This document shows positions 27,343-55,761 of a stretch of DNA of 64,000 nt, piece after piece. The translations under genes and the position numbers were made by a program. This stretch comes from Candidatus Poribacteria bacterium (lineage in GTDB: Bacteria; Poribacteria; WGA-4E; WGA-3G). The notes under the pieces were generated by a model that was not told the origin of the DNA, ran no database searches, and worked only from the letters and a program-made list of their open reading frames with translations. The stretch lies in the NCBI GenBank assembly GCA_965198235.1, contig OZ240248.1:1312001-1376000 (forward strand). Direction: 5' to 3'. The number at the start of each line of letters is the position of its first letter. Position 1 is the first letter of the stretch.

Positions 27343-28197
27343 CTATTTCTGATTTTTCAGTCGTCCCCACACGATTGGCAGCTTACCGCCAGCGGAAACC
27401 TCCGCGAATTCCGATTCACTTGCTAACCAGTTGATAACGTTTTCTGTGAGTTTCTCTATTTGATCAATATCCTCGTTGTTCTTATGATAATTTGGGAGCC
27501 GCCAGTTCATATTGAATACTTTACCGTCCCCAGCTTCCCAATAACCGAACGCTGCAATCCTGTCCGTGTAATTGGTGCCCCGCTCCCAAGCATGCGCAAG
27601 CGTCGTAAAATTCTTCCAAATTTTGTCGTAATAGTCACCACTTTTCGGATATCCAGTTGAATTGACCTGAATCCAATCCTCGACTTTCGGTGTCTTCCCA
27701 TCAACGTTCTTGAGTCCATCTATCAACCCGAGTGCCAGTGTCTCTTTGAGGACGATAATACCGACATTGCTTCCATCGTTTTCAACGGGTCCAAATGCCC
27801 GTGCTTGCGCATCTTCTAATCCCATCGATGTTGCATAACGAATCGCCCAACCTGTTAAGAGGACCGCGCCGCCGCTTTCAGCGTAGTCTAAAAACGCATC
27901 AATTTCTGCCTTGGACAGTGCCCCCGGATCAGTATCACCTTCATGCCACCAGATAACACCGAACTCCTTGAATGTGTCGCTCTTCAAATCCGCTTTCGCG
28001 AGTTGCTTCGTTTTGAACGTCTTTTCAGCAAACTCCAATGCGGGTGAAGTGAAGTCACCTTTATCACCGAGGTAAATAAACCCAACTTCCACTGCAGTAT
28101 TACCAATACTTATACCAAAATAGAGAAGAAATGTCAAACAAAATACGATTTGGCAAAATGTGTAAGCCGAATCTTGCCATTTAAAAGTCCGTTTCAT
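27343..28197 (-). CDS. Secreted hypothetical protein with C-terminal GKxxxxWGxLK motif
   Basis: Signal peptide; AAGGAG RBS; ends VSAGGKLPIVWGRLKNQK. Confidence 0.7.
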   Translation of the reverse strand: MKRTFKWQDSAYTFCQIVFCLTFLLYFGISIGNTAVEVGFIYLGDKGDFTSPALEFAEKTFKTKQLAKADLKSDTFKEFGVIWWHEGDTDPGALSKAEIDAFLDYAESGGAVLLTGWAIRYATSMGLEDAQARAFGPVENDGSNVGIIVLKETLALGLIDGLKNVDGKTPKVEDWIQVNSTGYPKSGDYYDKIWKNFTTLAHAWERGTNYTDRIAAFGYWEAGDGKVFNMNWRLPNYHKNNEDIDQIEKLTENVINWLASESEFAEVSAGGKLPIVWGRLKNQK

Positions 28198-28314
28198 GAT
28201 TGCTCCTTGTATGTTTACACAAAGTGGCGCGCAAATGCTTACACCTACTGATAGCATCCTCCAAAAATGGCGTTGATGCTCGTATCAGGCTTTTCTTTCC
28301 TCTGGTTCTCCATA

Positions 28315-28343
28315 ATAGTATCATGCAATAATGTTTTTGTCAA
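28315..28343 (-). promoter_or_regulatory. sigma70 promoter
   Basis: TTGACA-17bp-TACTAT. Confidence 0.6.
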
Positions 28344-28375
28344 GGTCTTTGGCGTAGAATTCGCGGATATTGTCC

Positions 28376-29167
28376 CTATAAAGACAAGTCTGAGTCGTTA
28401 TAGCACTCACGAAGTCGTTCGTTGCCCATTTTCACGAAACTCGGTTCAATCTCAAATCCGATAAAATCCCGCTGATGCCGCTTACACACCACAGGACAAG
28501 TACCGACTCCAGCAAAGGGATCCAAAACCAAATCCCCCGGTGATGAACTCGCTAACACAATCCGCTCAATGAGTCTCTCCGGTTTCTGGATGGTATTAAG
28601 TGTCTTTCTACTCACTAACTCCTTGGATTTATAGGTTAATTGCTTTATATCGCCCCAGACATCGCCGGGATTCTTTCCTTTCGGATTATATTTTGTTTTC
28701 CCGAACTTACCGTTTGTTACCGATGGCACATTTTCACACCGACTCCGATGCTCTAGCTCGACAAGTTGCGCGACTCTGATCGCATCAAGGTTGTAGCACC
28801 GCGGCTTTTTGCCCTTGATGAAATAACAGATAATATCGTAGTTATTGGTGTAACTGATTCGTCCCTGTGCAAGCCGACTTGGCTGATACCATACGATCTT
28901 TGAACGAAGATTTAAGTATTCTCGATAGTCTATGAAGTCAATACAATCCGATTTACCAAACAGATAGAGCGCGCCTCCGTCCTTCAATTTCGACGCGAAA
29001 TCTTTGATAAGCGCGAGATTGAATTCCTGAATTGAGGGTATTTTATCCCACGGCTCCTCTGTTATGCCATACGGTCCATCACACACAATCAGGTCCACTG
29101 AAGCGTCTTTTACCTCTTTCAGTAGGGTGAAGGTATCGCCGCAATAGATCGTGTTGCGCTCAAGCAT
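28376..29167 (-). CDS. Site-specific DNA methyltransferase (N4-C/N6-A, beta class), orphan
   Basis: VDLIVCDGPYG (DPPY variant), GDVW, QKPE.L.ERI, VLDPFAGVGT (FxGxG). Confidence 0.88.
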   Translation of the reverse strand: MLERNTIYCGDTFTLLKEVKDASVDLIVCDGPYGITEEPWDKIPSIQEFNLALIKDFASKLKDGGALYLFGKSDCIDFIDYREYLNLRSKIVWYQPSRLAQGRISYTNNYDIICYFIKGKKPRCYNLDAIRVAQLVELEHRSRCENVPSVTNGKFGKTKYNPKGKNPGDVWGDIKQLTYKSKELVSRKTLNTIQKPERLIERIVLASSSPGDLVLDPFAGVGTCPVVCKRHQRDFIGFEIEPSFVKMGNERLRECYNDSDLSL

Positions 29168-29299
29168 AATTTCGTTATCTCAGTTCCACCGGCAGGTTTA
29201 ATCTTTGTTAGCGTGGTGTATTGCTTTTCCAGCGACTATCCCCAACCCTGTAAGAAACACTACAAGTGTCAAAATTGCGACCCATTCCATCACAATTCC

Positions 29300-30748: not shown

Positions 30749-30771
30749 ATCAACCTTTACATGTCTACCGA

Positions 30772-31149: not shown

Positions 31150-31175
31150 GAGAAATCCCCAATATCCTTCGCGCC

Positions 31176-32774: not shown

Positions 32775-32857
32775 GTTTTTTGAAAAATCCTCCCTCTCAT
32801 TACACCACTTTGGTAAGCTGCACCAAAAATGTCGCAGTTGACATACTTTACTTAATA

Positions 32858-32944: not shown

Positions 32945-32960
32945 TCTTTTGCCTAATACA

Positions 32961-33300: not shown

Positions 33301-33363
33301 AATACAAGGCAACACACTCTTAATAAAATTTAACTATTGAATGGATTAAGGAGATTTTTCTTA

Positions 33364-35372: not shown

Positions 35373-35550
35373 ATCTAAGAATTTAGAGGAAGCCTATAGG
35401 ACAAGATCCATGTGTTTCTGCGGATCTGCGTATGTCCAGTTTAGGTTAGTAAGTCGGAGGACGCGCAGAAAAAGGACCCATTTTGCATGCGACAAAAAAT
35501 TCAAGTCATCTCCTCGGCTTGCACAAAAGAACAAACGACTGGAGGTAAAA

Positions 35551-38500
35551 ATGAGTTTGATACGTAGTCTGACCCGTTTTGGCGTGTTTTATAAGTCAAA
35601 ACTTGCTAATAAAAGTCTTGTCATGGCACTTCTATTTGGCATCTTGTTCCTTTTTAACGGTTGTGTCAAGATGGAGGCGACCCGGAAAGCGGATTGGGAG
35701 ACACATTTCACTGATCTGCACTTCGTCAATCATAAACAGGGCTGGATTGTTGGGCAGCAAGGGGTAATCATCCATACAACAGATCGCGGAGAGACGTGGA
35801 AGCAACAAGAAGTTGATACAACAAGCCCAGGATTTCGTCTTCCTGATGCCTCCTTGGACTTCAAGGCGGTCTATTTTACCAACGAGAACTACGGATGGGC
35901 AGTCGGCGATGAAGGGTTAGTTGCAGCTACCGACGATGGGGGTAAACACTGGACACTGCAAAAAAGCGGCACTTCCGCAATGCTCCTTGATGTCTTTTTT
36001 GCCAATTCAAAAGAAGGCTGGATTGTTGGGGAAGGTTCGGATGTCCTCTATACCGAGAACGGCGGAAAAGAGTGGAAACGTTACGAATACGTCAGCGACT
36101 TTATGCTCAACGGGGTCTGGTTCGTTAACGATTCAACAGGGTGGGTTGTCGGCACTCACGATAGAATTCTTCATACCAAAACCGGGGGCGAATCGTGGCG
36201 AGAGCAGAGCAATCGATTTGCGGGTGAGCGCGACAGGATGATCAACGACAATAAACAGGTCTTCTTCGTCAGCGATAATGAAGGTTGGATTGTCGGCAGT
36301 GACGGCTCTATCTTTCATACGAACACAGCCGGTGTAAACTGGGAACGCCAAGATAGCCGCATCCCACTGATTAATGGACACGTCCGAGATACCATCAATA
36401 GTATCCATTTCACTGATGAAAACTACGGGGTCGCTGTAGCAGATGTCGGATTTATTACCCGGACCGAAGACGGTGGCGACAACTGGCAATTGATGGAGAG
36501 CGGGACCGAAAACAATTTGACGGGGATCCATTTCACCACACCTAACGAGGCGTGGGCGGTCGGATGGTACGGCACTATTTTGCACACGACGGATGCAGGT
36601 GCGACATGGGAGATGACCAGTGGAACGACTGCGAATGACCTGCAGAACGTCCAGTTTGCCGATGCCAATCGGGCCGTCGCTGTCGGTAAGCGTGGCACCA
36701 TGGCGGTGAGCAATGATGGCGGACAAACTTGGAACGAAATTGAAACTGATATCTGGGACGGCATCTGGAATATCTATTTCGCAACTGACAAGCACGGCTG
36801 GGCAGTCGGTGATCGCGGTCTTATTGTCCATACCAATGATGGCGGTGCGAGTTGGGAACATCAGCGCGGTCCTTCCGCATTTGCACTCCGTTCTGTCCAC
36901 TTTGTGAGTCCTAAAGTCGGCTGGATCGTCGGAGATATCGGTAGTATCCTACACACAATTGACGGCGGGCAAACTTGGCTGCCGCAAACCGCAACGGGCG
37001 ATTTTCTTTCTTTGATGCTAAAGGGTGTATTTTTTCTTGACGAAAAGAAGGGATGGGCTATCGGATGGCCCGGTGTTTGCCTCACGACAGAAGACGGGGG
37101 TTTGACATGGAACCAGCAGACTACCGGCACCTTCAATGAACTCTATGCCGTTTACTTCGCAGATGAAAACACAGGGTGGATTATCGGACAGTTTGGAGAG
37201 ATTTTACATACCAAAAACGGTGGAAATAGATGGAACTTTCAACGCAGCGGCACGCAAGAAAATCTCAATAAGCTTTATTTTGCTGACGCACAGCACGGAT
37301 TGATCGTCGGTGATAACGGGGTGATGCTCACGACCGTCAACGGTGGCGCAAAATGGGAAATTCAAGAAAGCGGCACCGACAACGACCTGTACGGACTGGC
37401 TCTCTCGCCTGATGGTGTCGTCGCTGTCGGTAAAGGCGGGATTGCGATGCGTTATTCCGTTGAAGAAGCGGAATTGCCAGCGAAATTACCGCCTGTCGCT
37501 GAAGAAGTAGAGATTGTTACGGCTGAAGAGGAAACTCCTGTTGAGCCTGTTGCCTACCAGTGGGACATTATCCGTCAGGCAACTTGGCGAACGAACTTCA
37601 CCGATACGTATTTCGTAGATGCACAAAACGGATGGGCGGTCGGTTCAGGGGGCGCAATTGCACATACCACAGACGGTGGCAAGACGTGGCTCCCCCAACA
37701 CAGTGGTGTCAGTGAGGATCTGCGCCAAGTCGAATTTTCTGACGAAAAACATGGGCGAATCCTCGGATCTGGTATCTTACTTCAGACCGAAAATGGTGGT
37801 GAAACATGGCAGCCAATTCTTCAAGCAACCAAGCAGAACCTGCCACGTGTTAACACAATGCACTTCCTAAATGCCGAAGAGGGATGGCTTGGTGCAAGGA
37901 TTGGACAGACCTTGCATACGACCGATGGCGGCAAGACATGGAAAATCCAAAAGACCGGAACGACAACGGCAAACATCACCGATCTCCACTTTGTCAATAG
38001 TCAAGAGGGATGGGCAGTCACACCTCAACGTCGGGATGGTGGGTTTATTCTCCAGACCGTTGACGGTGGCGATTATTGGAAAATTCAGGCGAAAACGAAT
38101 CAACCCGGTATTGCTGTCCATTTCGCTGACGAAAATCGCGGTTGGGTAATTCTCGGCAACGGCAACTCTTTGTTGACTGAGGACGGTGGTGAAACATGGA
38201 AATTGCAGACCACGACACGGAGCACACCCGGCTTGCGACGCATCACCTTCCATTCGCATACCAACGCTTGGGGACTCGGTGGTGGTGGTGCTTATGTCAC
38301 CGAGGATCAGGGGTTGACTTGGAAGGCGGTTCCTGTTGATACAGGAGGTGGTGCAGGCGATAACATGTTCGCCATGGAAGAATTCAATCCACTGTTACCC
38401 GAAGAATCCGAAGAACCCGAAGAAGTGGAAGAAAAGGTTTCGGAGGGACCGACGCTAACTTACGACGAGACACCGGAGGAAATTCAAAATCGGTTGCGAG

Positions 38501-39660
38501 CGCAGTGGCAACGTCCAGGACGTTTCGCTCCTGAGGGTGAACTCCCGCCTAACGCCGAGCGGGCGACCCCTCCGACAGCGCAGAGGCAGCAACAACCACC
38601 TCCACCACCAGAACCTGAAGGACGCCGCAGACGCGGGGCACGCCGAATCGCCAACGTATACTTCTTGGATGCAGAGCACGCATGGGCTGTTGGAAGTGGC
38701 GGCAGTATCTACCACACCGCAGACGGGGGCGAGACATGGGAACGTCAGCTCGGTGAACAGCAGCGCAATGACTTCCGAGAGGTCCTCTTCTATGATGACA
38801 AAAACGGTTGGATCGCAGGAGACGGCGGTGTGCTATTGGAAACCCAAGATGGTGGACAGACATGGGAGACACTCCGAAGCCGGACGCGTCAACGTCTCAT
38901 CGGGGTACACTTTGCCAGTCTTGAACCCGAAAAATGGGGGTGGGCAATGCAACGCGACGGAACTGTCCTCTATACGACAGATGGCGTGACTTGGACAGCC
39001 GGAGATACACCTGAGCAACCGCCTTTCATGGAAGGCGATCCACCCGGTACATTCTCGCTGAACGATGTTGAATTCGGTAAGTTTTCTGAAGGCTGGGCAG
39101 TGGGTAGACTCGGATATATCATCCATAACAAAGATGGCGGTCCCACATGGACACCGCAACGCACCACTGCAAACGACACACTTATGGATGTGGATATGAA
39201 ATTCGCACCCCTCGGTTGGGCAGTTGGACAAGGCGGGGTAACCCAACGCACCATCAATGGGGGTGAGTATTGGCGGATGCACGAAACCAAGTCGAATTAC
39301 GATCTCTATGCCGTCTCTTTTATTGCCAAGCGGACAGGATGGGCGGCTGGCGAAGCGGGTATCGTCCTGAAGACGACTGATGGTGGTTTTACGTGGCAAC
39401 CTACGTTGACTGGGGTTACCAAGAACCTACACGGCATCATCGCACTCTCCGAACAGGAGATCTACGCCGTCGGTGAAGAAGGAACGATCGTTCGTTCAAC
39501 CGATGGCGGTGAAACGTGGGAACAGGAGCACACCGATATCGACAACAATCTCTATGTCATCACCCGTTCCAAGGACGGTAAGGCGTTGTGGGTTGTCGGA
39601 CAATGGGGGGTCGTCCTGCGTCGAAAATTAGAGACACCCGTGCGGATGTCAATGCGTTAA
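35551..39660 (+). CDS. YCF48-like / BNR Asp-box multi-beta-propeller lipoprotein
   Basis: More than 25 repeats of F.D...GW.VG..G.I.HT.DGG.TW; lipobox FNGC; GGAGG RBS at 35551; Pro/Glu-rich linkers. Confidence 0.88.
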   Translation: MSLIRSLTRFGVFYKSKLANKSLVMALLFGILFLFNGCVKMEATRKADWETHFTDLHFVNHKQGWIVGQQGVIIHTTDRGETWKQQEVDTTSPGFRLPDASLDFKAVYFTNENYGWAVGDEGLVAATDDGGKHWTLQKSGTSAMLLDVFFANSKEGWIVGEGSDVLYTENGGKEWKRYEYVSDFMLNGVWFVNDSTGWVVGTHDRILHTKTGGESWREQSNRFAGERDRMINDNKQVFFVSDNEGWIVGSDGSIFHTNTAGVNWERQDSRIPLINGHVRDTINSIHFTDENYGVAVADVGFITRTEDGGDNWQLMESGTENNLTGIHFTTPNEAWAVGWYGTILHTTDAGATWEMTSGTTANDLQNVQFADANRAVAVGKRGTMAVSNDGGQTWNEIETDIWDGIWNIYFATDKHGWAVGDRGLIVHTNDGGASWEHQRGPSAFALRSVHFVSPKVGWIVGDIGSILHTIDGGQTWLPQTATGDFLSLMLKGVFFLDEKKGWAIGWPGVCLTTEDGGLTWNQQTTGTFNELYAVYFADENTGWIIGQFGEILHTKNGGNRWNFQRSGTQENLNKLYFADAQHGLIVGDNGVMLTTVNGGAKWEIQESGTDNDLYGLALSPDGVVAVGKGGIAMRYSVEEAELPAKLPPVAEEVEIVTAEEETPVEPVAYQWDIIRQATWRTNFTDTYFVDAQNGWAVGSGGAIAHTTDGGKTWLPQHSGVSEDLRQVEFSDEKHGRILGSGILLQTENGGETWQPILQATKQNLPRVNTMHFLNAEEGWLGARIGQTLHTTDGGKTWKIQKTGTTTANITDLHFVNSQEGWAVTPQRRDGGFILQTVDGGDYWKIQAKTNQPGIAVHFADENRGWVILGNGNSLLTEDGGETWKLQTTTRSTPGLRRITFHSHTNAWGLGGGGAYVTEDQGLTWKAVPVDTGGGAGDNMFAMEEFNPLLPEESEEPEEVEEKVSEGPTLTYDETPEEIQNRLRAQWQRPGRFAPEGELPPNAERATPPTAQRQQQPPPPPEPEGRRRRGARRIANVYFLDAEHAWAVGSGGSIYHTADGGETWERQLGEQQRNDFREVLFYDDKNGWIAGDGGVLLETQDGGQTWETLRSRTRQRLIGVHFASLEPEKWGWAMQRDGTVLYTTDGVTWTAGDTPEQPPFMEGDPPGTFSLNDVEFGKFSEGWAVGRLGYIIHNKDGGPTWTPQRTTANDTLMDVDMKFAPLGWAVGQGGVTQRTINGGEYWRMHETKSNYDLYAVSFIAKRTGWAAGEAGIVLKTTDGGFTWQPTLTGVTKNLHGIIALSEQEIYAVGEEGTIVRSTDGGETWEQEHTDIDNNLYVITRSKDGKALWVVGQWGVVLRRKLETPVRMSMR

Positions 39661-41756: not shown

Positions 41757-41804
41757 GCTAACATCTCAGATGTGCCTTGTCTTTCTTCTATGGAGGCGCA
41801 ACCG

Positions 41805-43526: not shown

Positions 43527-43584
43527 GAGGACATGGTGTGCACGTTGGTGTTCCTCGTTCAGGGGTAGGCGATTGGAGGTCTGT

Positions 43585-44600: not shown

Positions 44601-44605
44601 ATTAC

Positions 44606-46930
44606 TTATCGCAATGTTTTCAACTGTCCCCATGTGGATATCTCCTTACCAGCAGCACCGACATGCCCTTTCAGGCGGATGCCACGGGTCAAGGTCTGAT
44701 GATTCCCGTCAAGAGAGACCTCCTCTATCTGGTAGTAGTAGACGACGTTGGGTTGAGCAGTTGTATCCGTGTAGGTATAGAACTGCTTCTCGCTGGTCGT
44801 GCCTGCGCCAGGGACCATGGTTGCGTTGATGACCTTGAACTGTCCGTCTCGTTGCTGACTCCGCTTGATAAAGAATCCAGCGTTGTTCAACTCCGATTGC
44901 GTAGACCAAGTAATCACCACTGCGCCAGTCGCCTTATCACGGGCAGGACGGAAGTGCGAAAGCTCGACGGGCAACGCACCACCAGCACGGAATCCGGGTG
45001 TGCCGACATCAATCGGTAAGCCGTAGTAACTGCGTGCGCTCAGATGCATCTGTTGTGCGAAACTCGTATCAGAGGCGAGCACCCAAGAATCCATCAGCGT
45101 GCCGTCTTTCGGTTCCGCGGGACCCACAGAAACGGGAACGTGTCTACGGATAATCGAGCTACGTGCACCATCTTCGTCTATCGGTAGTGCCCACATCGCA
45201 GTGCCATCCTCAGAAACCAGGTTGCCAACCACATCCATTGCCGCGGCGCGAGCGGCTGCCTGTCCAATAAATACAGCCGTAACCGGCGGTGCAAGCGTTA
45301 TTTTGAACGCCGTCCCGCTCATCAACGAATAACGGCGTTTGGAAATACCCAACAGAATCAGTTCATACAGTTGATCCGTCCAGAGATTGACGACCTGACC
45401 GTCTGCCAGCCAGCCGTCAAGGTTATTACGTCCCTGTGCGGTGACAACGAGAACGGTTGACGGGGTATCGTGCTGTCCACTCGGATCAATCTTTGTGCCT
45501 TCCGGGATCGTGAATACCGCCTTCGCACCGATACTCACATCGACATCAGCAGCGTCGTTCTCGACTGTCAGCGTCCAACCACCCAGGTTCACCTGCTCTG
45601 TCCGGGAACCGTTGGAAATCTCAATCCACTGTGGCAATCTGCCACCCCCAGCGAACATAATCTCGCTGATGTAGATTTGACCTTCCTCCGGTATCATCAC
45701 GGAAGCATCTGCGGCTGTCGCATCGGCATCAGCAGTCGCCTTTTCCGCAGCTGCGGAGTCTATGCCGGAGCCAGCCTTATCTTTGACAGGAATGTCGTGT
45801 CCAGCTGTGCTGTTCGCATCAGTGATCTTTACATCATCGTCGTGTGGCAGGGATAGCGTAACCCCTGTTCCGGGTGGCATCGTGGTTGTCGCTACCGCAA
45901 GTCTGAGTTGCTCACGCCCGTTCGGCTTGTTCGCTACACCGAACGGCTTATACACATTCACGAATGGGGAAGCACCATCATGGAACTCCTTGAGACTGAT
46001 CTTCACCGTATCCACTCTGCGATGCGGCGTAATCGTCACACGGTACTGATGATACATATTATCCGTGCCAGTGGGCATAGGAACGTTCATAGCATCCGCA
46101 CCTGGTGCCACACCGGCCAAACCATCATCGGCCTCTCCACTGTGCACGTACATTCCCTCAGACGGATGCGGCAGAATCGTCGAATCCGCATCTCCCTGTG
46201 CATTCGCTCGTCGTGCGAAGGGGACACCTACGACCAAGTTGCTGGCTGTTCCACCTTCAACGTTAATCTTATCAAGTGTCAGACCGCCGTCAGGTTTCTC
46301 GGTGAGCACAATCCGCACGTCAAAGGCACCCGTAACTTTCTCCTCTTGGAAAGCACTGACGACCGCTTGGCTACTCGGGCGCAACCGCTGGATGGAAACC
46401 ACGTTCGGGCGATCAGTATTTACCGGTATGGGACCCATTAAATTAAACGACAGGGAACCCTCTTTACTCGTCTGCTCTTCATTAGGAGTAAGACGTTTGA
46501 CACCCGCTTTTATGTACAGATGAACTTTTCTGTCATCTGCATCAGTGCTGGCGGCAGCAATAGTAAACGCGAAGGTTTTCCTATCCGTTTGAACTCCACC
46601 AACGGCAGCATTGATGTCCTTTATGCTAATTTCTGATGTCGATCCAGCACCCGCTTGCCCGGTGCCATCAGTTGTTGCTGGAACAGCAAGAGCAGTTCGA
46701 ACACCGTTCTTATCTTCAACGTGAACAATGATAAACGCCCTCTCAGCAGTTGTAAGTGCTACTTCCTCAGCAAATGTAAGCGTAACGACGATATCTGTGC
46801 CGTATTGCTTGTTAATAACGCTAAATGTGGCATCGAAGTCATCAGCCGCCATCGCGGAAGGCACCACGAAAGCAAGAACAAATATTGTGATTAAACGCAT
46901 TAACGAAAATGCCATTTTCTTTGACAACAT
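44606..46930 (-). CDS. Lamin-tail-domain secreted surface protein, paralog A (internally deleted relative to B)
   Basis: MLSKKMAFSL signal; IYISEIMF...QWIEI.N...V.L.GWTL; GTPG; LPVELSHF; C-terminal WGQLK. Confidence 0.8.
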   Translation of the reverse strand: MLSKKMAFSLMRLITIFVLAFVVPSAMAADDFDATFSVINKQYGTDIVVTLTFAEEVALTTAERAFIIVHVEDKNGVRTALAVPATTDGTGQAGAGSTSEISIKDINAAVGGVQTDRKTFAFTIAAASTDADDRKVHLYIKAGVKRLTPNEEQTSKEGSLSFNLMGPIPVNTDRPNVVSIQRLRPSSQAVVSAFQEEKVTGAFDVRIVLTEKPDGGLTLDKINVEGGTASNLVVGVPFARRANAQGDADSTILPHPSEGMYVHSGEADDGLAGVAPGADAMNVPMPTGTDNMYHQYRVTITPHRRVDTVKISLKEFHDGASPFVNVYKPFGVANKPNGREQLRLAVATTTMPPGTGVTLSLPHDDDVKITDANSTAGHDIPVKDKAGSGIDSAAAEKATADADATAADASVMIPEEGQIYISEIMFAGGGRLPQWIEISNGSRTEQVNLGGWTLTVENDAADVDVSIGAKAVFTIPEGTKIDPSGQHDTPSTVLVVTAQGRNNLDGWLADGQVVNLWTDQLYELILLGISKRRYSLMSGTAFKITLAPPVTAVFIGQAAARAAAMDVVGNLVSEDGTAMWALPIDEDGARSSIIRRHVPVSVGPAEPKDGTLMDSWVLASDTSFAQQMHLSARSYYGLPIDVGTPGFRAGGALPVELSHFRPARDKATGAVVITWSTQSELNNAGFFIKRSQQRDGQFKVINATMVPGAGTTSEKQFYTYTDTTAQPNVVYYYQIEEVSLDGNHQTLTRGIRLKGHVGAAGKEISTWGQLKTLR

Positions 46931-47070
46931 TCGTTTAATCCCCCCGTGACCCTCTTCTGTAGGAGCGACCTCCTGGTCGCGATCTTCTGTTCGTAGTAGT
47001 GCGATTCATCGCACGTTCCCAAATCACAGTTCAGACAATTACTGACAACCGATAACTAACAACTACTAAA

Positions 47071-47114
47071 AAACAAAACGGGGTAATGTCGCTAAGGACA
47101 CTACCCCGTCTTGT
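47071..47114 (-). terminator. Intrinsic terminator of paralog B
   Basis: GACGGGGTAGTGTC-loop-GACATTACCCCGTTTTGTTTTT; compensatory changes versus 55815-55858. Confidence 0.75.
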
Positions 47115-47171
47115 GGTTAAGGTTAGTTCAAACAAATTTTATCCCTGAAATAACCTTGTTGTTCCTACTAC

Positions 47172-50100
47172 TTATTGCGATGTCTTCAATTCTCCCCACG
47201 TCAGCGTGGCTTTACCGGCGACACTCACATGCCCTTTCAGGCGCATGCCGCGGGTCAGCGTCTGACGATTACCATCGAGAGATACATCTTCAATCTGGTA
47301 GTAGTATACGACGTTGGGTTGAGCAGTTGTATCCGTGTAGGTATAGAACTGCTTTTCACTCGTTGTGCCTGCACCAGCGATCATTGCCGCGTTGATGACT
47401 TTGAACTCGCCGTCTTTTTGCTGACTCCGCTTGATGAAGAATCCAGCGTTGTTCAGCTCAGATTGCGTAGACCAGGTAATCACCACTGCGCCAGTCGCCT
47501 TATCACGGGCAGGACGGAAATGTGAAAGTTCAACAGGCAACGCACCACCAGGACGGAATCCGGGTGTGCCGACATCGCTTTGTGCGCCGTAGTAACTCGC
47601 GGCACGGATGTGCGTCGGTTGCGCGAAACTCGTATCGGATGCGAGTGCCCAATTCATCATCATCGTGCCATCTTCGGGTTCCGCAGCACCGACAGAGACT
47701 TGGACGTGTCCACGAATAATCGAGCTACGTCCGTCCTCACTCATCGGCAATGCCCATGCGGCAGCACCATCAGCACCGAGGTTACCCACGATATCCGTCG
47801 CTTCTGCGCGTTCCTTCGCGGCTTTGGCATCAGCGGCGGCCTTGGCGGCTGCAGCTGCGCGCGCGGCTGCGATTTCGGCTGCCGTTGTTGGCGCGGCTGC
47901 TTTCTTCGCTGGAGCTTCAATCGGCACCGGGGGGGCGAGCGTTATTTTGAACGCCATACCGCTCAACAACGAATAGCGAGGTTTCAGAACACCTGCTATG
48001 ATCAGGTCAATCTCGGTCGTAGACCCTGGTTGATTCAGGACCATAACCTGACTCCTTGCCTTCGCGCCCGTAAGGTTGTTACGTCCTCTTTCGGTCACGA
48101 GGAGCAGCGTTGACGGGGTATCGTCCTGTCCACTCATATCGATCTTCGTGCCTTTCGGGATCTCGAAAGTTACTGAACCGACACTCACATCGGTATCGGC
48201 TGCAGCGTTATCGACCGTCAGCGTCCAACCGCTCAGGTCGACCTCTTCTGACCGCGAACCGTTGGAGATCTCAATCCACTGTGGGAGCGTCCCACCGCCA
48301 GCGAACATAATTTCGCTGATGTAGATTTTACCGACCATCGGCATCGAGACAGAAGTATCTGCTGCTTTTGCGGCTGTTGCGGCTGCGGCAGCAGCTTTCG
48401 CTTTTGCTGCTGCTACTATAGCTGCGGCTTCAGAAGGACTAATGACACGTGTGGAACCCGGTGAAGCATCGTATTTACCTTCAAGACCTAACTTGAAGTT
48501 GACGCTTGGCGATGTCGACTGCATCCAACTACCTGCTACCGTACCGTTTGCGGGCATCATCGCGCCTGCTGCTGCACCTACTGTTGTATCTGCCACCATC
48601 CCACGATACATAGAAGCAAGCTGCTGTATCGGTGCGATTGCAGCGACATCTGCGGTACCTGCGTCAACCCCAGATCTTCCACTCTGACCTTTACCGGCGA
48701 TTGACCAGTAAATATCCGCTGTGGTCCCTGTTGTTGCGGGTGCGATAACGGTTCCAGCAAATGTTTTCGTACCGACCCGGTCAACGAGCACACCCGCTGT
48801 GCCATCATCCTTCACGTATGTCGCACGAGGGGTCTCGTTCGCTTGATAGAACCACAACGCCCATTTATTTTCACCAATCTCAATAGCGGCTGTGGTCGCA
48901 TTGGCAATCTCAATCCATTGGCTGTTTGTGGCATCAGCGGTTTGGCTGGCATCGGTGCCCCACATCACTTCACTGATATAGGCGGCTCCCGCTGCTGTGC
49001 CATCGTATGCCACGAGGTCAATCGTGCCATTATTGGCGAGGAACGTCTCTAAGTTCGGCAGACTCCCCGATGCCCTGACATTGTATAACAATTGGGCAGG
49101 CGTCTGCTTATGGGGGACATTCTCTACTTTCGTCTTATCCGCCGCATCTACCTCGTCCGAGAAATCTATGCCGGAACCAGCCTTATCCTTCGTAAGGATG
49201 TAGTGCCCAGCCGTGTCCGCGTAAGTGATCATTGCAGCTTCGCCGTGCGGCAGGTAAAACATAAACCCTGCACCGAGTGCAGCAAGGTCTGTCGCTACGG
49301 CGAGTCTGAGTTGCTCACGCCCGTTCGGCTTGTTCGCTACATTAAAAGGCTTATACACATTCGGAAACGGTACAGCATTATCATGGAATTCCTTGATACT
49401 GATTTTCACCATATCCACTCTGCGATGTGGCGTAATCGTCACACGATACTGATGATACATACTATCAGGACCCGTAGTCAGCGGGACAAATGTGTGATCG
49501 GTAAGACTTGGTGAACTCACCTCACCTAGCGCACCAACTAAAGCGTCGTCACCATCGTGAGCATACATACCCTCAATTGGATGGGGTCTATACGTGCTTG
49601 CCAACTGATCAGCGGTAGGCTCATCAGCGAGCGTATCTCCGAGCCGCGAGAAGGGCACACCTACGACCAAGTTGCTGGCTGTTCCACCGTCAACCTCAAT
49701 GTGAGCAAGTTTAAATTCATGCGGCAACTCGGTGAACACGATCTTAACGTCAAAGGCACCCGTAACTTTTTCCTCTTGGAAAGCAGAGACGACTGTTTGG
49801 CTACCCGGACGCAACCGTTGGATAGAAACCACGTTCGGACGATCAGTATTTACCGGTATGGGACCGATCAAATCAATACTCGCTGAAGCCTTTTTGCTCG
49901 TCTTCGCTTCCTCAGGGACAAAACGGGCAACACCTGCTGGTATGAACAGATGAATTTTTCTGTCATCCATATCAGTGCTTTCGGCATCAATAGTAAACAC
50001 GAACTGTTTTCTATCCGTTTGATCGCCGGTAACAGCAAGGTTGATGTCCTTCGCGCTAATTTCTGATGTTGATGTAGCACTAGCATCTGGCGGGTTGTCA

Positions 50101-50381
50101 CCAACTGCTGTAATTGTTGTGGGGACAGTGATAGCAGTTCGAACACCGTTCTTATCTTCAATATGAACGGTAATTATCCTTGTCTCTGCCTCCTGTATAT
50201 TTGCAAGCGGTACTTCCTCTTTAAAAGTAATCGTAACCTCGATATCTGTGGCATAGGTTGTATTAACAACGCTAAATTCGGCATCGAAGTCGTCAGCCGC
50301 TATCGCAGAAGGCACCACGAAAGCAAGAGCGAGAATTGTTATTAGACTCATTAACGAAAATGCCATTTTCTTTGACAACAT
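47172..50381 (-). CDS. Lamin-tail-domain secreted surface protein, paralog B
   Basis: Signal peptide; two ISE.M..QWIE domains; Ala/Lys-rich linkers; LPVELSHF; C-terminal WGELK. Confidence 0.85.
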   Translation of the reverse strand: MLSKKMAFSLMSLITILALAFVVPSAIAADDFDAEFSVVNTTYATDIEVTITFKEEVPLANIQEAETRIITVHIEDKNGVRTAITVPTTITAVGDNPPDASATSTSEISAKDINLAVTGDQTDRKQFVFTIDAESTDMDDRKIHLFIPAGVARFVPEEAKTSKKASASIDLIGPIPVNTDRPNVVSIQRLRPGSQTVVSAFQEEKVTGAFDVKIVFTELPHEFKLAHIEVDGGTASNLVVGVPFSRLGDTLADEPTADQLASTYRPHPIEGMYAHDGDDALVGALGEVSSPSLTDHTFVPLTTGPDSMYHQYRVTITPHRRVDMVKISIKEFHDNAVPFPNVYKPFNVANKPNGREQLRLAVATDLAALGAGFMFYLPHGEAAMITYADTAGHYILTKDKAGSGIDFSDEVDAADKTKVENVPHKQTPAQLLYNVRASGSLPNLETFLANNGTIDLVAYDGTAAGAAYISEVMWGTDASQTADATNSQWIEIANATTAAIEIGENKWALWFYQANETPRATYVKDDGTAGVLVDRVGTKTFAGTVIAPATTGTTADIYWSIAGKGQSGRSGVDAGTADVAAIAPIQQLASMYRGMVADTTVGAAAGAMMPANGTVAGSWMQSTSPSVNFKLGLEGKYDASPGSTRVISPSEAAAIVAAAKAKAAAAAATAAKAADTSVSMPMVGKIYISEIMFAGGGTLPQWIEISNGSRSEEVDLSGWTLTVDNAAADTDVSVGSVTFEIPKGTKIDMSGQDDTPSTLLLVTERGRNNLTGAKARSQVMVLNQPGSTTEIDLIIAGVLKPRYSLLSGMAFKITLAPPVPIEAPAKKAAAPTTAAEIAAARAAAAAKAAADAKAAKERAEATDIVGNLGADGAAAWALPMSEDGRSSIIRGHVQVSVGAAEPEDGTMMMNWALASDTSFAQPTHIRAASYYGAQSDVGTPGFRPGGALPVELSHFRPARDKATGAVVITWSTQSELNNAGFFIKRSQQKDGEFKVINAAMIAGAGTTSEKQFYTYTDTTAQPNVVYYYQIEDVSLDGNRQTLTRGMRLKGHVSVAGKATLTWGELKTSQ

Positions 50382-50556
50382 TCGTTCAATCTCCTTGTTC
50401 TTATGGAATAAAATTTTAAACTTAAACCTAAAACCTCACGGAAGGGAAAAAATGGAAAAGTAATCTTTTTCATGTCTTGCCTCCGCTTATGTACAAAATA
50501 AGAACGGATCCAGGGATTGTAAACCCATTCCTCATTTGAACCTAACCTTTTGCACA
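50300..50556 (-). repeat. Long inverted repeat, left copy (leader plus signal-peptide coding); partner 52346-52600
   Basis: Near-identical reverse complement of 52346-52600. Confidence 0.92.
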
Positions 50557-50695
50557 TAATGTAACTTACACATTATGTGCTGTTTTCAAGGGTTGCTAAT
50601 CGATGCGGCTCTAAGAGTGACTCTTAATGTGTGAAAACATCGCGTTTCAACTCATAATGTGCCAAAATATCGCGTTTCAACCCTTTACACAGTTA

Positions 50696-50724
50696 ATTCT
50701 ACCCTATTAAACGCTATTTGTCAA
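50696..50724 (-). promoter_or_regulatory. Strong sigma70 promoter for paralog B
   Basis: TTGACA-17bp-TAGAAT with upstream A/T tracts (50730-50810). Confidence 0.75.
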
Positions 50725-50824
50725 ATTAAAATTACAAAAAAACGCACTTTTTTGCGAAAAAACGCATAATTCGTCAAAAAAAGTGCGAAATTCGCAAAAA
50801 AAGTGTAAAATGGAGTATTGGTTG

Positions 50825-51310
50825 TCGTCAGAACTGTGATTTTTCTGATTTACTGAGTGGAAGAAGTCAGAACTGTGATTTCTGTGATTTCTGGGATGTG
50901 CCGTGATTGGGAAATTTTCAGAACTGTGATTTGTGGGATTTCTGGGATGTGCCGTGATGTAGAAAACGGTGTATCTAAGCAACCCCACCCCGTAGGGGTG
51001 CTATGTCTATAGAAAACGGTGTATCCAACCAAACGCACCCCGTAGGGGTGCTATGTCTATAAATAAGTGGCAACCTGCGTTACATTAATATATATTAAAG
51101 GAACCGAAGGTGGGGTATTATCTACAGCAGTTTCGTAGCGGAAACCCTCATCACAGAAATCACATCATCAGAAAAATCACAGTTCAGACAGCGGTTTTGC
51201 GGATAAGGCGGGTTAGAGGGGGGAGGTGCTGATAACGCCTGTCTTCTGTAGGAGCGACCTCCTGGTCGCGATCCACCTGTTTGTAGTAGTGCGATTCATC
51301 GCACGTTCTT
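50825..51310. repeat. Repeat cluster (AATCAC periodic repeats, CACCCCGTAGGGGTG palindromes, REP doublet)
   Basis: 41-bp duplication 50868-50908/50918-50958; 50-bp duplication 50985-51060. Confidence 0.7.
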
Positions 51311-51371
51311 ATGCACCCCTGTCCCCCTGATAAGGGGGATTGAGAGGGTTGGGGGGTTACTGACCCCTACT

Positions 51372-51493
51372 AACAAAAGCAGATAACGGGAGAGTTCCCT
51401 ATACTCCCCCGCTACCCTTTTAGTTTAATCAAATGGAGGAGATTAGTGTCGTCCTCAGGACAGGTTAAGTTTAGCCTCATTCCAGGAGGTTAA
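51372..51493 (-). ncRNA. Candidate small RNA with anti-Shine-Dalgarno tract
   Basis: Own promoter TTGACA-17-GATAAT (51499-51527), two hairpins, UAAUCUCCUCC tract, GC-rich terminator plus U-run (51375-51421). Confidence 0.5.
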
Positions 51494-51766
51494 CCTTAAT
51501 TATCCAATTTCTACGGAAAAATGTCAAGGGGCAAGTCTTGTGCCTTCAGGGCTATTTAGTTTTAGGTGCTTTATCCAATTGAGCCGAAAAGTCGCGAGCG
51601 GGAGCTCGTTTCCCCAGGTCTTGTGCCTGCGCACCCAAGAACCATTGTAGGGGGTTTTTGCTTGGGGATTTCCCCAGGTCTTGTGCCTGCCCGTTCCCTT
51701 GTGCCTGCCCTATATACAGTATATATAAGGAGCACACCATATATACCTACATATAAGGAGCATACC

Positions 51767-52183
51767 ATGTCAAACGAAATCTATCTCTCCGTCGCCCAAG
51801 CCGCCGATCTACTGGGCATCTCGCAAGAAACCCTCTACAAAGAAATTCAATCTGGGAACCTTACCGCGACAGAGAACCCGGACCAAAAACGGAAGCATAA
51901 AGTCATCGCCGTCAGCGAACTCTCGCGCCTCTACGGTAAGATATGCATCCCTGACGGGTATCTCGAATACTCCGGGGATAAGTCAGTTGATTTTGTGAGG
52001 GTTGCGCTCCGACAAGAGAATGAGAGGCTCCGTAAGGCGTTGGAAGAGACCCAGAATCGCGAGCGGAATCTCAATGAGCAGCTCAAGACCGCACTTCAAA
52101 ACCACAAAACGCTTATCGAGACCCACGCAGATCTCACCAAAACCATCGATAATTTAACCACTGTGCTGGATAAAATGACCTAA
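51767..52183 (+). CDS. Excisionase/MerR-like helix-turn-helix protein with C-terminal coiled coil
   Basis: LSVAQAADLLGISQETLYKEIQSGNL; LRQENERLR coiled coil; AAGGAG RBS. Confidence 0.8.
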   Translation: MSNEIYLSVAQAADLLGISQETLYKEIQSGNLTATENPDQKRKHKVIAVSELSRLYGKICIPDGYLEYSGDKSVDFVRVALRQENERLRKALEETQNRERNLNEQLKTALQNHKTLIETHADLTKTIDNLTTVLDKMT

Positions 52184-52345
52184 ATTCTTTCTTGTTTGTA
52201 AAACACCTGCTATTTTACAGAGAATCCCTCCGGAATTACAATTTTTTGAAATACCTCCCGGCCCTCCCTCGTCTCGGTAGGCGCGGTTTGTAACTGGAAG
52301 CCTCACACTTCCGATTCTCGCCGCTCCTGGCCGAATTTAACCTTT

Positions 52346-52600
52346 TGTGCAAAAGGTTAGGTTCAAATGAGGAATGGGTTACAATCCCTGGATCCGTTCT
52401 TATTTGTACATAGACGGAGGCAAGACATGAAAAAGATTACTTTTCCATTTTTTCCCTTCCGTGAGGTTTTAGGTTTAAGTTTAAAATTTTATTCCATAAG
52501 AACAAGGAGATTAAACGAATGTTGTCAAAGAAAATGGCATTTTCGTTAACAAGTCTAATAACAATTTTTGCGCTTGCCTTCGTGGTGCCTTCCGCAATGG
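52346..52600 (+). repeat. Long inverted repeat, right copy
   Basis: Reverse complement of 50300-50556. Confidence 0.92.
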
Positions 52601-55600
52601 CAGTGGATTTTGAGGTCACGATTGAGGGGCAGCGAGTGGTGACTTATCCAACAGGTCAAGAAGCCACAGCGCTTGATCCTATTCTACTGACAGTTACGTC
52701 CGAAGAGGCTCTTCCTGACCCTCTTATGGTAGGGGAGGATACCGATGAAAATGGTCTTACTGATCACGCAAATGATATCCTCGGAAACATAACTGTCACC
52801 ACTCGTGATGAAAGGGGTTTCGAAAAAGTTTTCATTACTGTTGAATCAGGTGATGATGCTCATAGTAGTATTGCTACAGGTGTTACAGTAGTAGACGACC
52901 CTGTAGATACTTTTGCTGATAGATCAGTGAAACTGCGTCAGTTACGTGTTACCATCACACCGGGTGCAGCTCCCACAACCCTCGAGCGGGTCACGATAAC
53001 AATACCTGCCTTTGAGACGCCTGATGTTCGTGTCGATGATCTTCACGATTGGAGCCTCGGGGCGTCACACACGATCCTCGTTAGAGATGTAGCGGATGTT
53101 GAGCTTGATGAGGATGACGCACAAGTGGTATCAATCCAGCGGTTGCGTCCGGGGAGCCAAACGGCAGTTGCGGCCTTCCAAGATCAGGAAATTAGTCCCG
53201 ATCCTTTTGATATTCGGGTCGTGCTCACCGAGTCGCGTTTTAACCGGATAGATTATATTGAGAAGACCCCGGATGAGCTTGCGGAGGAACTCATTGAGGT
53301 TGACGGCGGGGAAGTCAGTGACTTGAGAAGAGGTGTCCCTTTTGAAATTCGCAGAGTAACTGCTGCTACAGAATCTACGACTTTCAAACCGCATCCGAAT
53401 GAGGGGAGGTACGAGAATACTGGTATAGATGATGCACTCCCAGGACTGGAACCTATGGAGACTGTCCCGGAGCCCACGGGTCTTGATAATATGTATCATG
53501 AGTACCGTGTGACGGTTACGCCCCAGAGACGGCAAGGTCCTTACACCTTGACGCTCAGCGTGAAGGGATTCGGGAGTTATGCCCCGTTTCTCATAGGTGA
53601 AAAACCCAACGGTCGTGAGCAACTCAGGGTTCCCGTAAGGATGGATCCGAGAGACCGCACGGCTGGCATTCGGATAATTGTGGGGCACGATATCGTCGTT
53701 CCTAAAAATGGCTACTTGATCATCGCGACGGACTGGTGGCAGTCTCAAATCGTAATACCGCGGGGTAGGATAGACAAATCACCGAGGGCGATTGACCGGC
53801 AACCCGCTCAAATGATTTACAACCTTATCGACCACGGCGGTCTCCCGAACCTCGCAACCCAATTCTACAACGGTGTTGTGATTGATGTAGAGAGTTCAAA
53901 CGACTTGGTTATCTCTGAGGTGATGTGGGGTGAAGATGCAAGTTTGACTGAACCTGCACGCAGCCAATGGATCGAGTTGTATAACCCTGGTGATGAATTT
54001 AAGACGCCAGAGGATGATGCGGCTACGTATGACATTGATGAACGCCTCACGCTCGTTATCTATAGAGCGAACGAGTTCAGTGATATTCCGGCAAAGGTGG
54101 CAGTAGCGGCAACGGCGACTGCGCCCGCTACTATGGCATTGCCAGATAGAGTTACCGATCGGATCGGAACGCTCGATGCGACTGGGAAATACTGGTCACC
54201 CGCAACCAAAGGTCAAAGCGGTCGGAGCGGTCTTCCTATCGAGAGATTTGGAGAACTCGTAGACGTCGAAGTCATACCGACTATTGGGACAGGAGATGTT
54301 ACGCCCATCGTTTCGATGTATCGGGTGATGGAACCAGATACCTCAACAGATGCGGCAATCGGTGCGATGAAACCTGTCGACGGTCAAATGGCCGCGAGTT
54401 GGATGTCCTCTCAGCAGCCAAGGTCTGCGAACTTTCGTCCGCATGCGATTGGTCTCCGACACGGCACACCGGGTGCGACAACGGATGCTACCGATACACC
54501 GGCAGATACCGAAGCTGAAGCAAAAGCTAAAGCGGATAAGGAAAAAGCCGATGCGGATAAGATCGCCGGCACTGGGACGATTCCGAAAGCGGGTCAAATC
54601 TACATCAGCGAAGTTATGTTCGCTGGCGGTGGCACACTGCCGCAGTGGATTGAGATCGCCAACGGTTCTCGGGCAGAAGAAGTCAACCTGAGCGGTTGGA
54701 CGATTACGGTGGATAACGCCGCTGCGGATGCCGATGTGAGTATCGGTGCTTCAGCGACGTTCACGATCCCCAAAGGCACGACGATCGATATGAGTGGTCA
54801 GGACGATACACCCTCAACGATACTCGTTGTCACTGAAAAGGGACGTAACAGCTTTAGTGGTCCGAAAGCAGCGAGTCAGGTCATTGTCCTGGATGAACCG
54901 GGCTCAATGACTGAAATCGACCTGATTCTGGCAGGTGTTACGAAGGGCAAATACACATTGCTCAGCGGCATGGCGTTCCAGATAACGCTCGCACCGCCGG
55001 AACCAGAGGTGGATGAAACGGCAGCTGAGAAGACAGCGCGGTTAACCGCTGAGAAGGCTGAAACGGTAGCTGCGAAGACAACACGGCAAGCCGCTGAAGC
55101 GAGAGCCGCAGCGGAACGTAAAAGGGCAACGGATACGGTCGGTAACCTCGGTGCTGACGGTGCTGCTGCATGGGTATTGCCGATGAGCGAGGAAGGCGGT
55201 CGTAGTTCGATTATCCGCAGACACGTTCAGGTCGCTCGAGGTCCCTCAGCACCCGAAGACGGCACGATGATGGACAATTGGGTGCTTGCATCCGATACGA
55301 GTTTCGCACAAGTCACGCATATTCGTGCGCAGAGCTTCTACGGTGCGGCGAACGATGTCGGCACCCCCGGATTCCGTCCTGGTGGTGCATTGCCTGTAGA
55401 ACTTTCACACTTCCGTCCTGCGCGTGATAAGGCGACTGGCGCAGTGATGATTACATGGTCGACCCAATCAGAGTTGAACAACGCTGGATTCTTTATCAAG
55501 CGGAGTAATCAACCTGACAGCGAGTTCAAAATCATCAACGCGGCAATGATTCCTGGCGCAGGCACAATCAGTGAGAAGCAGTTCTATACATTTACGGATA

Positions 55601-55761
55601 CAACTGCGCAACCCAACGTCGTATACTACTACCAGATTGAAGATGTATCTCTTGACGGAAACCGTCAACAATTGACCCGTGGCATCCGCCTGAAAGGGCA
55701 TGTGAGTGTCGCTGGGAAAGCCACGCTGACGTGGGGAGAATTGAAGACGTCTCATGAGTAG
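52519..55761 (+). CDS. Lamin-tail-domain secreted surface protein, paralog C
   Basis: Same signal peptide and C-terminal third as B; divergent N-terminal and central regions. Confidence 0.85.
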   Translation: MLSKKMAFSLTSLITIFALAFVVPSAMAVDFEVTIEGQRVVTYPTGQEATALDPILLTVTSEEALPDPLMVGEDTDENGLTDHANDILGNITVTTRDERGFEKVFITVESGDDAHSSIATGVTVVDDPVDTFADRSVKLRQLRVTITPGAAPTTLERVTITIPAFETPDVRVDDLHDWSLGASHTILVRDVADVELDEDDAQVVSIQRLRPGSQTAVAAFQDQEISPDPFDIRVVLTESRFNRIDYIEKTPDELAEELIEVDGGEVSDLRRGVPFEIRRVTAATESTTFKPHPNEGRYENTGIDDALPGLEPMETVPEPTGLDNMYHEYRVTVTPQRRQGPYTLTLSVKGFGSYAPFLIGEKPNGREQLRVPVRMDPRDRTAGIRIIVGHDIVVPKNGYLIIATDWWQSQIVIPRGRIDKSPRAIDRQPAQMIYNLIDHGGLPNLATQFYNGVVIDVESSNDLVISEVMWGEDASLTEPARSQWIELYNPGDEFKTPEDDAATYDIDERLTLVIYRANEFSDIPAKVAVAATATAPATMALPDRVTDRIGTLDATGKYWSPATKGQSGRSGLPIERFGELVDVEVIPTIGTGDVTPIVSMYRVMEPDTSTDAAIGAMKPVDGQMAASWMSSQQPRSANFRPHAIGLRHGTPGATTDATDTPADTEAEAKAKADKEKADADKIAGTGTIPKAGQIYISEVMFAGGGTLPQWIEIANGSRAEEVNLSGWTITVDNAAADADVSIGASATFTIPKGTTIDMSGQDDTPSTILVVTEKGRNSFSGPKAASQVIVLDEPGSMTEIDLILAGVTKGKYTLLSGMAFQITLAPPEPEVDETAAEKTARLTAEKAETVAAKTTRQAAEARAAAERKRATDTVGNLGADGAAAWVLPMSEEGGRSSIIRRHVQVARGPSAPEDGTMMDNWVLASDTSFAQVTHIRAQSFYGAANDVGTPGFRPGGALPVELSHFRPARDKATGAVMITWSTQSELNNAGFFIKRSNQPDSEFKIINAAMIPGAGTISEKQFYTFTDTTAQPNVVYYYQIEDVSLDGNRQQLTRGIRLKGHVSVAGKATLTWGELKTSHE

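Follow-up and report, generated by a model that had tools for sequence, protein, structure and literature searches.

A short C-terminal tail on exported proteins of Poribacteria, a candidate address or docking tag

A short conserved peptide closes the C-terminus of six otherwise dissimilar exported proteins in a 64,000-nucleotide stretch of the genome of a Candidatus Poribacteria bacterium (GenBank assembly GCA_965198235.1, contig OZ240248.1, positions 1,312,001 to 1,376,000 of the forward strand); this whole stretch is called the window below, and positions without a contig label are counted from its first letter. We consider it probable, from sequence comparison, that this tail gives Sec-exported proteins a modular address or docking tag, which acts at the level of the peptide and is recognised by a putative partner. 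An earlier note on the window had proposed a short lineage-specific sorting, secretion or surface-attachment signal, and that interpretation is partly supported as far as sequence goes. New here are the occurrence of the tail in a second phylum, an inventory and profiling of parts resembling the type IX secretion system (T9SS), the swapping of the tail with T9SS C-terminal domains (CTDs), a codon test and coverage by RNA libraries.

Position of the tail and export signals of its carriers

The strict pattern V..xGK....WG.[LMVI]K matches exactly six open reading frames (ORFs) of the window, each match ending 3-4 residues before the stop, and an iterated profile returns the same six carriers and no further one. 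These are the six proteins for which the earlier note had quoted a shared V-x3-GK-x4-WG-x-[LMV]K ending, which the pattern search bears out (aa, amino acids):

27346 to 27399, minus strand: tail VSAGGKLPIVWGRLKNQK, C-terminal end of the 304-aa exported protein 27343-28257 (pattern and profile)
41694 to 41753, plus strand: tail LDVQARGKLATTWGKMKADP, C-terminal end of the 261-aa LamG protein 40971-41756 (pattern and profile)
42519 to 42578, plus strand: tail LDVQARGKLATVWGKVKAGQ, C-terminal end of the 269-aa LamG protein 41772-42581 (pattern, profile and Pfam)
44609 to 44665, minus strand: tail HVGAAGKEISTWGQLKTLR, C-terminal end of the 774-aa LTD protein 44606-46930 (pattern, profile and Pfam)
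47175 to 47231, minus strand: tail HVSVAGKATLTWGELKTSQ, C-terminal end of the 1069-aa LTD/Big_12 protein 47172-50381 (pattern, profile and Pfam)
55699 to 55758, plus strand: tail HVSVAGKATLTWGELKTSHE, C-terminal end of the 1080-aa LTD protein 52519-55761 (pattern, profile and Pfam)

The further claim that the carriers belong to unrelated families agrees with Pfam, which finds Laminin_G_3 in the LamG pair (40971 and 41772) and LTD in the three large paralogues, with Big_12 on protein 47172-50381 as a sub-threshold match; the 304-aa protein has no clear family, its only match being a sub-threshold one to DUF4960 (22.7 bits against a cut-off of 29.2), and its placement in Poribacteria clusters of a protein atlas serves as a lead only. 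A looser pattern, GK.{3,5}WG.[LMVI]K, adds one window match, internal to ORF 28376-29167, which we take as chance because the rest of the motif is absent.

The tail is strictly C-terminal throughout the genome that holds the window (5.17 Mb in two contigs, complete-looking), which was searched as 20,356 ORFs of 60 aa or more from all six frames. The core pattern GK-x4-WG-x-[LMVI]-K gives 51 matches, every one 0-18 residues from a stop. A 19-column profile retrieves 142 ORFs at 10 bits or more, where the reversed-sequence control reaches at most 8.0 bits, and after three iterations 171 ORFs lie above a reversed-sequence maximum of 12.1 bits; in all 171 the match lies no more than 20 residues from the stop, with no internal case. 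The carriers, with a median length of 263 aa, make up about 4% of the 4,034 genes in a crude gene set. Over about 19 (18-20) residues the consensus reads [LF]-A-V-[ED]-P-x-G-K-L-x-T-T-W-[GA]-x-[LIVM]-K, and past the conserved K come further residues, 0-7 in the consensus and 0-18 over all 171 matches (mode 3, usually 2-4), mostly polar or basic (R 17%, Q 10%, K 9%); there is no hydrophobic anchor, in keeping with the remark in the earlier note that the tail is not a transmembrane anchor.

Carriers are also strongly enriched in export signals, as had been claimed: among carriers with a length of 190 aa or more, a crude heuristic scores 125 of 140 as signal-peptide-like, compared with 335 of 1955 background ORFs matched for size (odds ratio 40, p 6e-71). 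Most of the 15 carriers that the heuristic misses have a visible signal sequence past a mis-called start, and a lipobox-like string occurs in only 7 of the 171. Both outcomes that the earlier note had named as refuting its reading, a motif found away from the C-terminus and a lack of enrichment on signal-peptide proteins, are contrary to these results. No Pfam or NCBIfam model covers the tail in the window carriers, which were scanned against both collections.

Carrier folds, peptide-level constraint and transcripts

BLAST sorts 153 carrier bodies, trimmed of their tails, into 37 clusters, and the most populous of these, a LamG cluster, has 82 members. Pfam recognises Laminin_G_3, PD40/DPPIV_N, Kelch, CBM9, F5/8 type C (discoidin), NPCBM, ankyrin and LTD with Big_12 among 34 representative bodies, 19 of which have no Pfam family, and the tail sits on at least 8 Pfam folds besides LamG. 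For the most part the carriers are small modules resembling lectins or carbohydrate-binding modules (CBMs), joined by propellers, ankyrin proteins and the large LTD proteins; in LTD protein 44606-46930 the domain preceding the tail is FN3-like, and no T9SS CTD is found there.

The tail is not part of the LamG fold. In the window pair the Laminin_G_3 envelope stops before it, at residue 232 of 261 and 240 of 269, and an AlphaFold2 model of LamG protein 40971-41756, built on a LamG alignment, gives a confident jelly-roll (mean predicted local distance difference test score, pLDDT, 88.3; most of the domain above 90) in which the last 21 residues form a low-confidence, unpacked helix (pLDDT 68, 63, 42) and no sandwich fold. 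Foldseek relates the model to the generic ConA/LamG jelly-roll only, with domain 4 of AbnA as the best whole-domain match (5hon_A, TMt 0.75); matches to neurotoxin receptor-binding domains reflect a generic lectin-like subdomain at 13-18% identity, and we give them no functional meaning. Among aligned LamG homologues the tail is retained where the bodies are only 24-30% identical, and two homologues labelled Planctomycetes or Phycisphaerales, at 41-43% identity, have no tail and a further domain instead. This extra domain (...HDVYFGT...YxWRVDEVN...; P0026 and P0029) stands at the position of the tail, and its first strands align loosely with it, which may be chance.

Constraint on the tail acts at the level of the peptide. 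At its conserved residues every synonymous codon is in use, and third-position identity is 0.375 where the residues are identical; such free synonymous variation argues for selection on the peptide and not for a DNA repeat. A viral collection gave a single match, a 363-aa protein that has a signal peptide, esterase-like motifs and the tail at its end (contig L306, 1492-2583, minus strand), and this contig may be a Poribacteria fragment or a prophage. Protein-atlas matches to the tail segment itself scored 0.85-0.86, had no taxa recorded and were of no use.

In one sponge metatranscriptome study, four runs contain RNA-library contigs that cover the two LamG genes and the LTD genes with 95-100% identity, and those over LamG gene 41772-42581 cross its 3' end, which is consistent with transcription of the window carriers and is not proof of it. 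Within 43561-56000 some of these contigs join distant points of the LTD region (for example 43772 to 51319 and 46973 to 51318), including points on opposite strands; the joints are probably assembly chimeras between the near-identical LTD paralogues and their flanks.

Taxonomic range and the metalloprotease-ankyrin family

The tail is present in 176 of 176 Poribacteria genomes, in 31 of 31 genera and in 11 families; its core is intact in the deepest branches, and V, G, K, W, G/A and K are near-invariant across the whole phylum. This count, which like the genome-wide one of 171 ORFs had been proposed in the earlier note as a check, rests on a 40-row tail alignment, with at most the best 46 of 30-359 first-look candidates per genome scored. 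A back-translated core pattern run over one genome per species found at least 125 stretches, and in 125 of 125 matches fetched from other genomes a stop codon follows 1-12 codons past the motif. Among the 80 titles listed, 70 are Poribacteria, 8 are 'uncultured bacterium', 1 is Pseudomonadota and 1 is Deltaproteobacteria.

The last two labels lead to other phyla. In the phylum of the 'Deltaproteobacteria' metagenome-assembled genome (MAG), 2 of 301 genomes match. In the MAG itself the match is a single fragment in a 28-aa frame, and in the second genome it scores 21.5 bits. In the phylum that includes the 'Pseudomonadota'-labelled MAG (131 species genomes; the second phylum below, its tail-bearing genomes the second lineage), 4 genomes have tails, 5-15 each, and mis-binning cannot explain them because three of the four are single contigs; the tail is therefore not strictly confined to Poribacteria. 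The word 'lineage-specific' in the earlier note thus holds for every Poribacteria genome searched and has to be relaxed for these 4 of 131 genomes of another phylum.

Second-lineage carriers are 320-470 aa long and have signal peptides, with a lipobox-like string in 9 of 37. Most of them match one or the other half of a six-paralogue family of the window genome (BLAST E <= 1e-5), always as the top hit; these paralogues, of 610-675 aa, lie at C1:3254248-3830989 (L302-L305) and have a divergent tail that was missed at the first threshold. Members of the family combine a signal peptide, an invariant HExxHxxGLxDTY zinc-protease motif and ankyrin repeats, of which a profile search of the PDB recognises the repeats alone; in long forms an extra C-terminal domain precedes the tail, and in short forms the tail comes right after the repeats. 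In the second lineage the family is split, and after gene fission each half has its own signal peptide and its own tail, which fits a per-polypeptide address.

This metalloprotease-ankyrin family is patchy. It occurs in 36 of 176 Poribacteria genomes, with tandem arrays of 12-15, and strong matches to the protease domain are found in only the same 4 of 131 second-phylum genomes, with 14-20 copies in the three single-contig genomes (2.2-3.1 Mb) and 4 in a 1.9-Mb MAG (G527, G528, G529 and G176). The pattern suggests that the family was transferred between the lineages, and it is probably a patchy mobile accessory that carried the tail along. A distribution this narrow within Poribacteria (36 of 176 genomes) excludes the family as general receptor or processing enzyme of the tail, and we dropped it as a universal receptor.

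Possible partners and competing readings

The genes around the carriers form a glycan-degradation context and are not sorting enzymes. Enriched neighbours are FG-GAP/ASPIC (10 loci, 19 paralogues), FGE-sulfatase (9, 17) and TPR genes (17, 47), together with sulfatases, GFO/IDH/MocA, PhyH and xylose-isomerase-like proteins and methyltransferases. Sortase-like families are absent from the enriched neighbours, with no genome-wide search aimed at exosortase or rhombosortase, and nothing resembling a cohesin scaffold, with its repeated receptor modules, was found. The FGE-sulfatase-like, FG-GAP/ASPIC-UnbV and TPR genes often run in the same direction as the carriers beside them, for example in the order FG-GAP, carrier or carrier, TPR, FG-GAP. 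In the window this setting is represented by one gene, and between the carriers lies a large propeller protein:

42615 to 43526, plus strand: FGE-sulfatase-like gene directly 3' of the LamG pair, a BLAST-family member of the Pfam-called FGE-sulfatase gene L169, not itself scanned with Pfam
35410 to 39660: 1416-aa protein with many BNR/Ycf48-like and sortilin-Vps10-like propeller repeats (PSII_BNR 426 bits, 15 stretches)

If the tail is an address or docking tag, the N-terminal signal peptide would export the carrier, and the tail would hang off the last folded domain on a variable linker, where a conserved partner in the cell envelope would recognise it; recognition would then keep the cargo in, or route it to, a common place, most likely for cell-surface display or retention. 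That a partner reads the tail, that this happens in the envelope and that its outcome is localisation are all inferred.

Several results weigh against this reading. No sortase-like or translocon gene recurs beside 108 carrier loci, and no neighbour recurs across 30 second-lineage loci. When 1.6 of the 2.18 Mb (73%) of second-lineage genome G528 was compared with the window genome, 518 of its 1401 ORFs matched, at a median identity of 34%, and of the 40 shared signal-peptide-like proteins outside the metalloprotease-ankyrin family, the 39 with an annotation are all generic or unassigned (SecDF, YidC, BamA, HtrA-PDZ, penicillin-binding proteins, SppA, ExbB, LpoB and parts of ABC systems). Partner profiling, a check that the earlier note had suggested, was thus run in part, and neither the neighbourhoods, nor this hunt for shared genes, nor the SprA/PorV profiling described below gave a positive result. 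In G528 the tail is better conserved than the body in only 12 paralogue pairs, which is weak support. A C-terminal signal that persists without detectable machinery is no proof of being read. The signal-peptide calls come from a heuristic of our own, and the RNA evidence consists of contigs only, from one study, in a kind of library that can contain DNA. Literature searches, covering listings and abstract openings for topic searches, found no paper that describes the tail or its motif strings.

The same negative results feed a possible, if rather unlikely, alternative in which the tail needs no machinery at all and is a horizontally portable surface-retention tag that binds a ubiquitous envelope component (lipopolysaccharide, LPS; peptidoglycan; the membrane surface) or its own copies. 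The tail has apparently moved between phyla with one family and persists in the second in two architectures; dedicated machinery common to both lineages was not detected, and neither lineage shows a conserved neighbour gene; the residues past the last K are 26% R+K, the conserved core holds two Lys and one Trp, and self-matching would explain the likeness of the roughly 170 paralogous tails. Generic membrane or LPS anchors are usually less constrained than a core in which V, G, K, W, G/A and K are near-invariant across a phylum, and the tail offers only three hydrophobic side chains. Were this alternative true, an exported protein that gained 19 residues would join a common lectin- and protease-rich coat.

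Since the genome holds T9SS-like parts, the most concrete hypothesis is a T9SS link, and the comparative tests are mostly against it. The tail would be a miniature signal for the Poribacteria T9SS-like apparatus, read by a PorV/PorQ barrel or a PorU-like C25 peptidase and replacing the type-A CTD of about 80 residues on small cargo; we judge this unlikely. The parts comprise an SprA/Sov-like protein of 2239 aa (C1:981354-988073, L195; TIGR04189 E 3.5e-49, 167 bits against a cut-off of 200), seven PorV/PorQ-family barrels (five above the NF033709 cut-off), several of which are paired with proteins of about 1900-2260 aa (genes L188-L194), and a PorU-like C25 peptidase (399.8 bits, cut-off 420) with a PorV2-like barrel immediately downstream; two more PorU-like giants bring the PorU-like C25 peptidases to three in all (L196, C1:1015768-1022070). 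An SprA-like gene is found in 149 of 150 Poribacteria genomes that are at least 90% complete. A 2014 single-cell study reports T9SS-type CTDs in Poribacteria and neither T9SS structural genes nor a secretion pathway (PMC3909097); the SprA-, PorV- and PorU-like genes qualify that statement, and Tables S8 and S9 of the study may list some of them.

True CTDs exist alongside the tail. The window genome has 26 TIGR04183 matches, 23 of them above the cut-off on their own and none in a window carrier; these CTDs span about 70 of 72 model positions, contain the PNPFNP motif, end exactly at ...[LMR]K and sit on cargo of 538-2100 aa. The window itself contains one such protein, which is no tail carrier and serves for comparison:

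56384 to 61591, plus strand: 1735-aa protein with Big_1, DUF5050-like, type-I dockerin and T9SS type-A C-terminal domains (TIGR04183 24.5 bits, cut-off 23; FlgD_ig 32.7 bits), ending in ...MRKMVILK with no residue past K

That the tail differs from the PNPFNP-type CTD of this protein, as the earlier note held, is confirmed: the two share no sequence, and the window carriers have no match to TIGR04183 or PF18962 at E <= 1 (NCBIfam) or E <= 0.01 (Pfam), where the 56384 protein does match.

What ties the two signals together is their cargo. In the window genome, 7 of 21 T9SS-CTD proteins have a module in common with a tail carrier (36-69% identity), and members of the metalloprotease-ankyrin family close with a tail in some cases and with a CTD in others; such interchange on homologous cargo is the expectation for two alternative address labels. 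Tail and SprA/PorV co-occur in Poribacteria and not in the four tail-bearing second-phylum genomes, where neither the family models nor a search with Poribacteria sequences found SprA or PorV (positive control in the window genome, 1068 bits and 18 matches). This absence test is not clean, because real CTDs also persist in those genomes: three genuine type-A CTDs (37-38 bits, cut-off 23) occur in two of the four.

G528:C1:1486522-1488213: type-A CTD on a metalloprotease-ankyrin protein, without detectable SprA/PorV
G528:C1:1564826-1566463: type-A CTD on a metalloprotease-ankyrin protein, without detectable SprA/PorV
G176:C45: type-A CTD on a metalloprotease-ankyrin protein, without detectable SprA/PorV

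Further against a T9SS reader, the tail shares no sequence with the CTDs of its own genome, and a carrier lies upstream of the SprA-like gene at about 18 of 30 same-genus loci and 0 of 12 other-genus loci; we dropped this adjacency as a link, confined as it is to one genus. GldM also gave no match, in a search whose control matched nowhere. The DUF560 family (Slam/type XI; PF04575) had no match in the window genome or the four second-lineage genomes, with a control that matched in 0 of 14 control genomes.

It is quite improbable, in our estimate, that the tail serves not localisation but maturation, activation or turnover, as a C-terminal propeptide or degron for an envelope protease. A flexible, appended tail such as the AlphaFold2 model shows would suit that role, HtrA-type PDZ proteases and SppA are among the few envelope proteins common to both lineages, and the family that the lineages share is itself a zinc metalloprotease with an invariant HExxH. 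The extreme C-terminus that PDZ-type readers bind is, however, the variable part of the tail (0-18 mixed residues), and a metalloprotease found in only 36 of 176 Poribacteria genomes is not a general processing enzyme.

Equally little, or slightly less, credence goes to a tail aimed at the sponge host, that is, a binding or trafficking motif on eukaryote-like proteins with no bacterial partner. Ankyrin, Kelch, LamG, discoidin and LTD folds do occur among the carriers, the RNA runs with window sequence are sponge metatranscriptomes, and among the second-lineage genomes there is a MAG with a locus recovered by the scan that also picked up sponge Poribacteria MAGs. Against this, the tail is in all 11 families of a phylum that, according to one study, includes free-living lineages (PMC8546597), and most carriers are small lectin- or CBM-like modules among glycan-degradation genes.

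That the tail is the last strand of one expanded paralogue family, or a DNA- or RNA-level repeat at gene 3' ends, is highly improbable: 82 of the 153 carriers do form a single LamG cluster, but the reading is contradicted by the 36 other clusters with their unrelated Pfam folds, by a Pfam envelope that ends ahead of the tail and a model that leaves it off the domain, by tail-less homologues in other phyla and by the use of all synonymous codons with third-position identity at 0.375.

Set beside known C-terminal signals, a tail that acts as an address or docking tag would resemble the T9SS type-A CTD (TIGR04183/PF18962, Por_Secre_tail) in its use, since both occupy the extreme C-terminus of signal-peptide proteins with unrelated cargo, are multi-copy in the same genome (23 CTDs, 171 tails) and finish near a conserved [LIVM]-K. 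As a folded domain, the CTD takes up about 70-100 residues, stops at K and sits on long cargo (538-2100 aa), whereas the tail has 18-20 residues, is not confidently structured, continues for 0-18 residues, is found on cargo with a median of 263 aa and also occurs in genomes without detectable SprA/PorV. Sortase-type tripartite signals are likewise short C-terminal motifs with a basic end on unrelated exported proteins. In LPXTG/sortase, PEP-CTERM/exosortase, GlyGly-CTERM/rhombosortase and MYXO-CTERM a transmembrane helix separates the motif from the basic cluster; the tail has no transmembrane segment and matches no NCBIfam sorting signal. Dockerins, which with cohesins also gather carbohydrate-active or carbohydrate-binding proteins through a C-terminal module, much as the tail is found mostly on CBM- or lectin-like carriers, are folded calcium-binding domains of about 60-70 residues with a Pfam model, unlike a 19-residue peptide.

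Two further classes are short peptides. The beta-signals of outer-membrane proteins and the ligands of PDZ domains are C-terminal, are read in the envelope by strand addition and need aromatic or hydrophobic last residues; the tail is similarly short, C-terminal and rich in beta-formers (V, T, T, W), but its extreme terminus is variable and polar or basic, and its cargo consists of soluble domains and not barrels. Loading peptides of encapsulins and microcompartments are short terminal sequences on a flexible linker that bring unrelated cargo to one place in the cytoplasm; carriers of the tail have Sec-type signal peptides.

Poribacteria are uncultured and abundant in sponges, and the wider question here is the route by which they export and display their many lectin-like and eukaryote-like proteins. 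A 19-residue tag on about 4% of the proteome would define the cargo set of an undescribed localisation route, and it may serve as a handle for pull-downs, antibodies and metaproteomic searches and allow surface or secreted proteins to be predicted from sequence phylum-wide. Portability without dedicated machinery, should it be borne out, could also make the tag useful for display. Its occurrence in a second phylum, together with the swapping of tail and CTD, makes the question of its machinery testable by comparative genomics.

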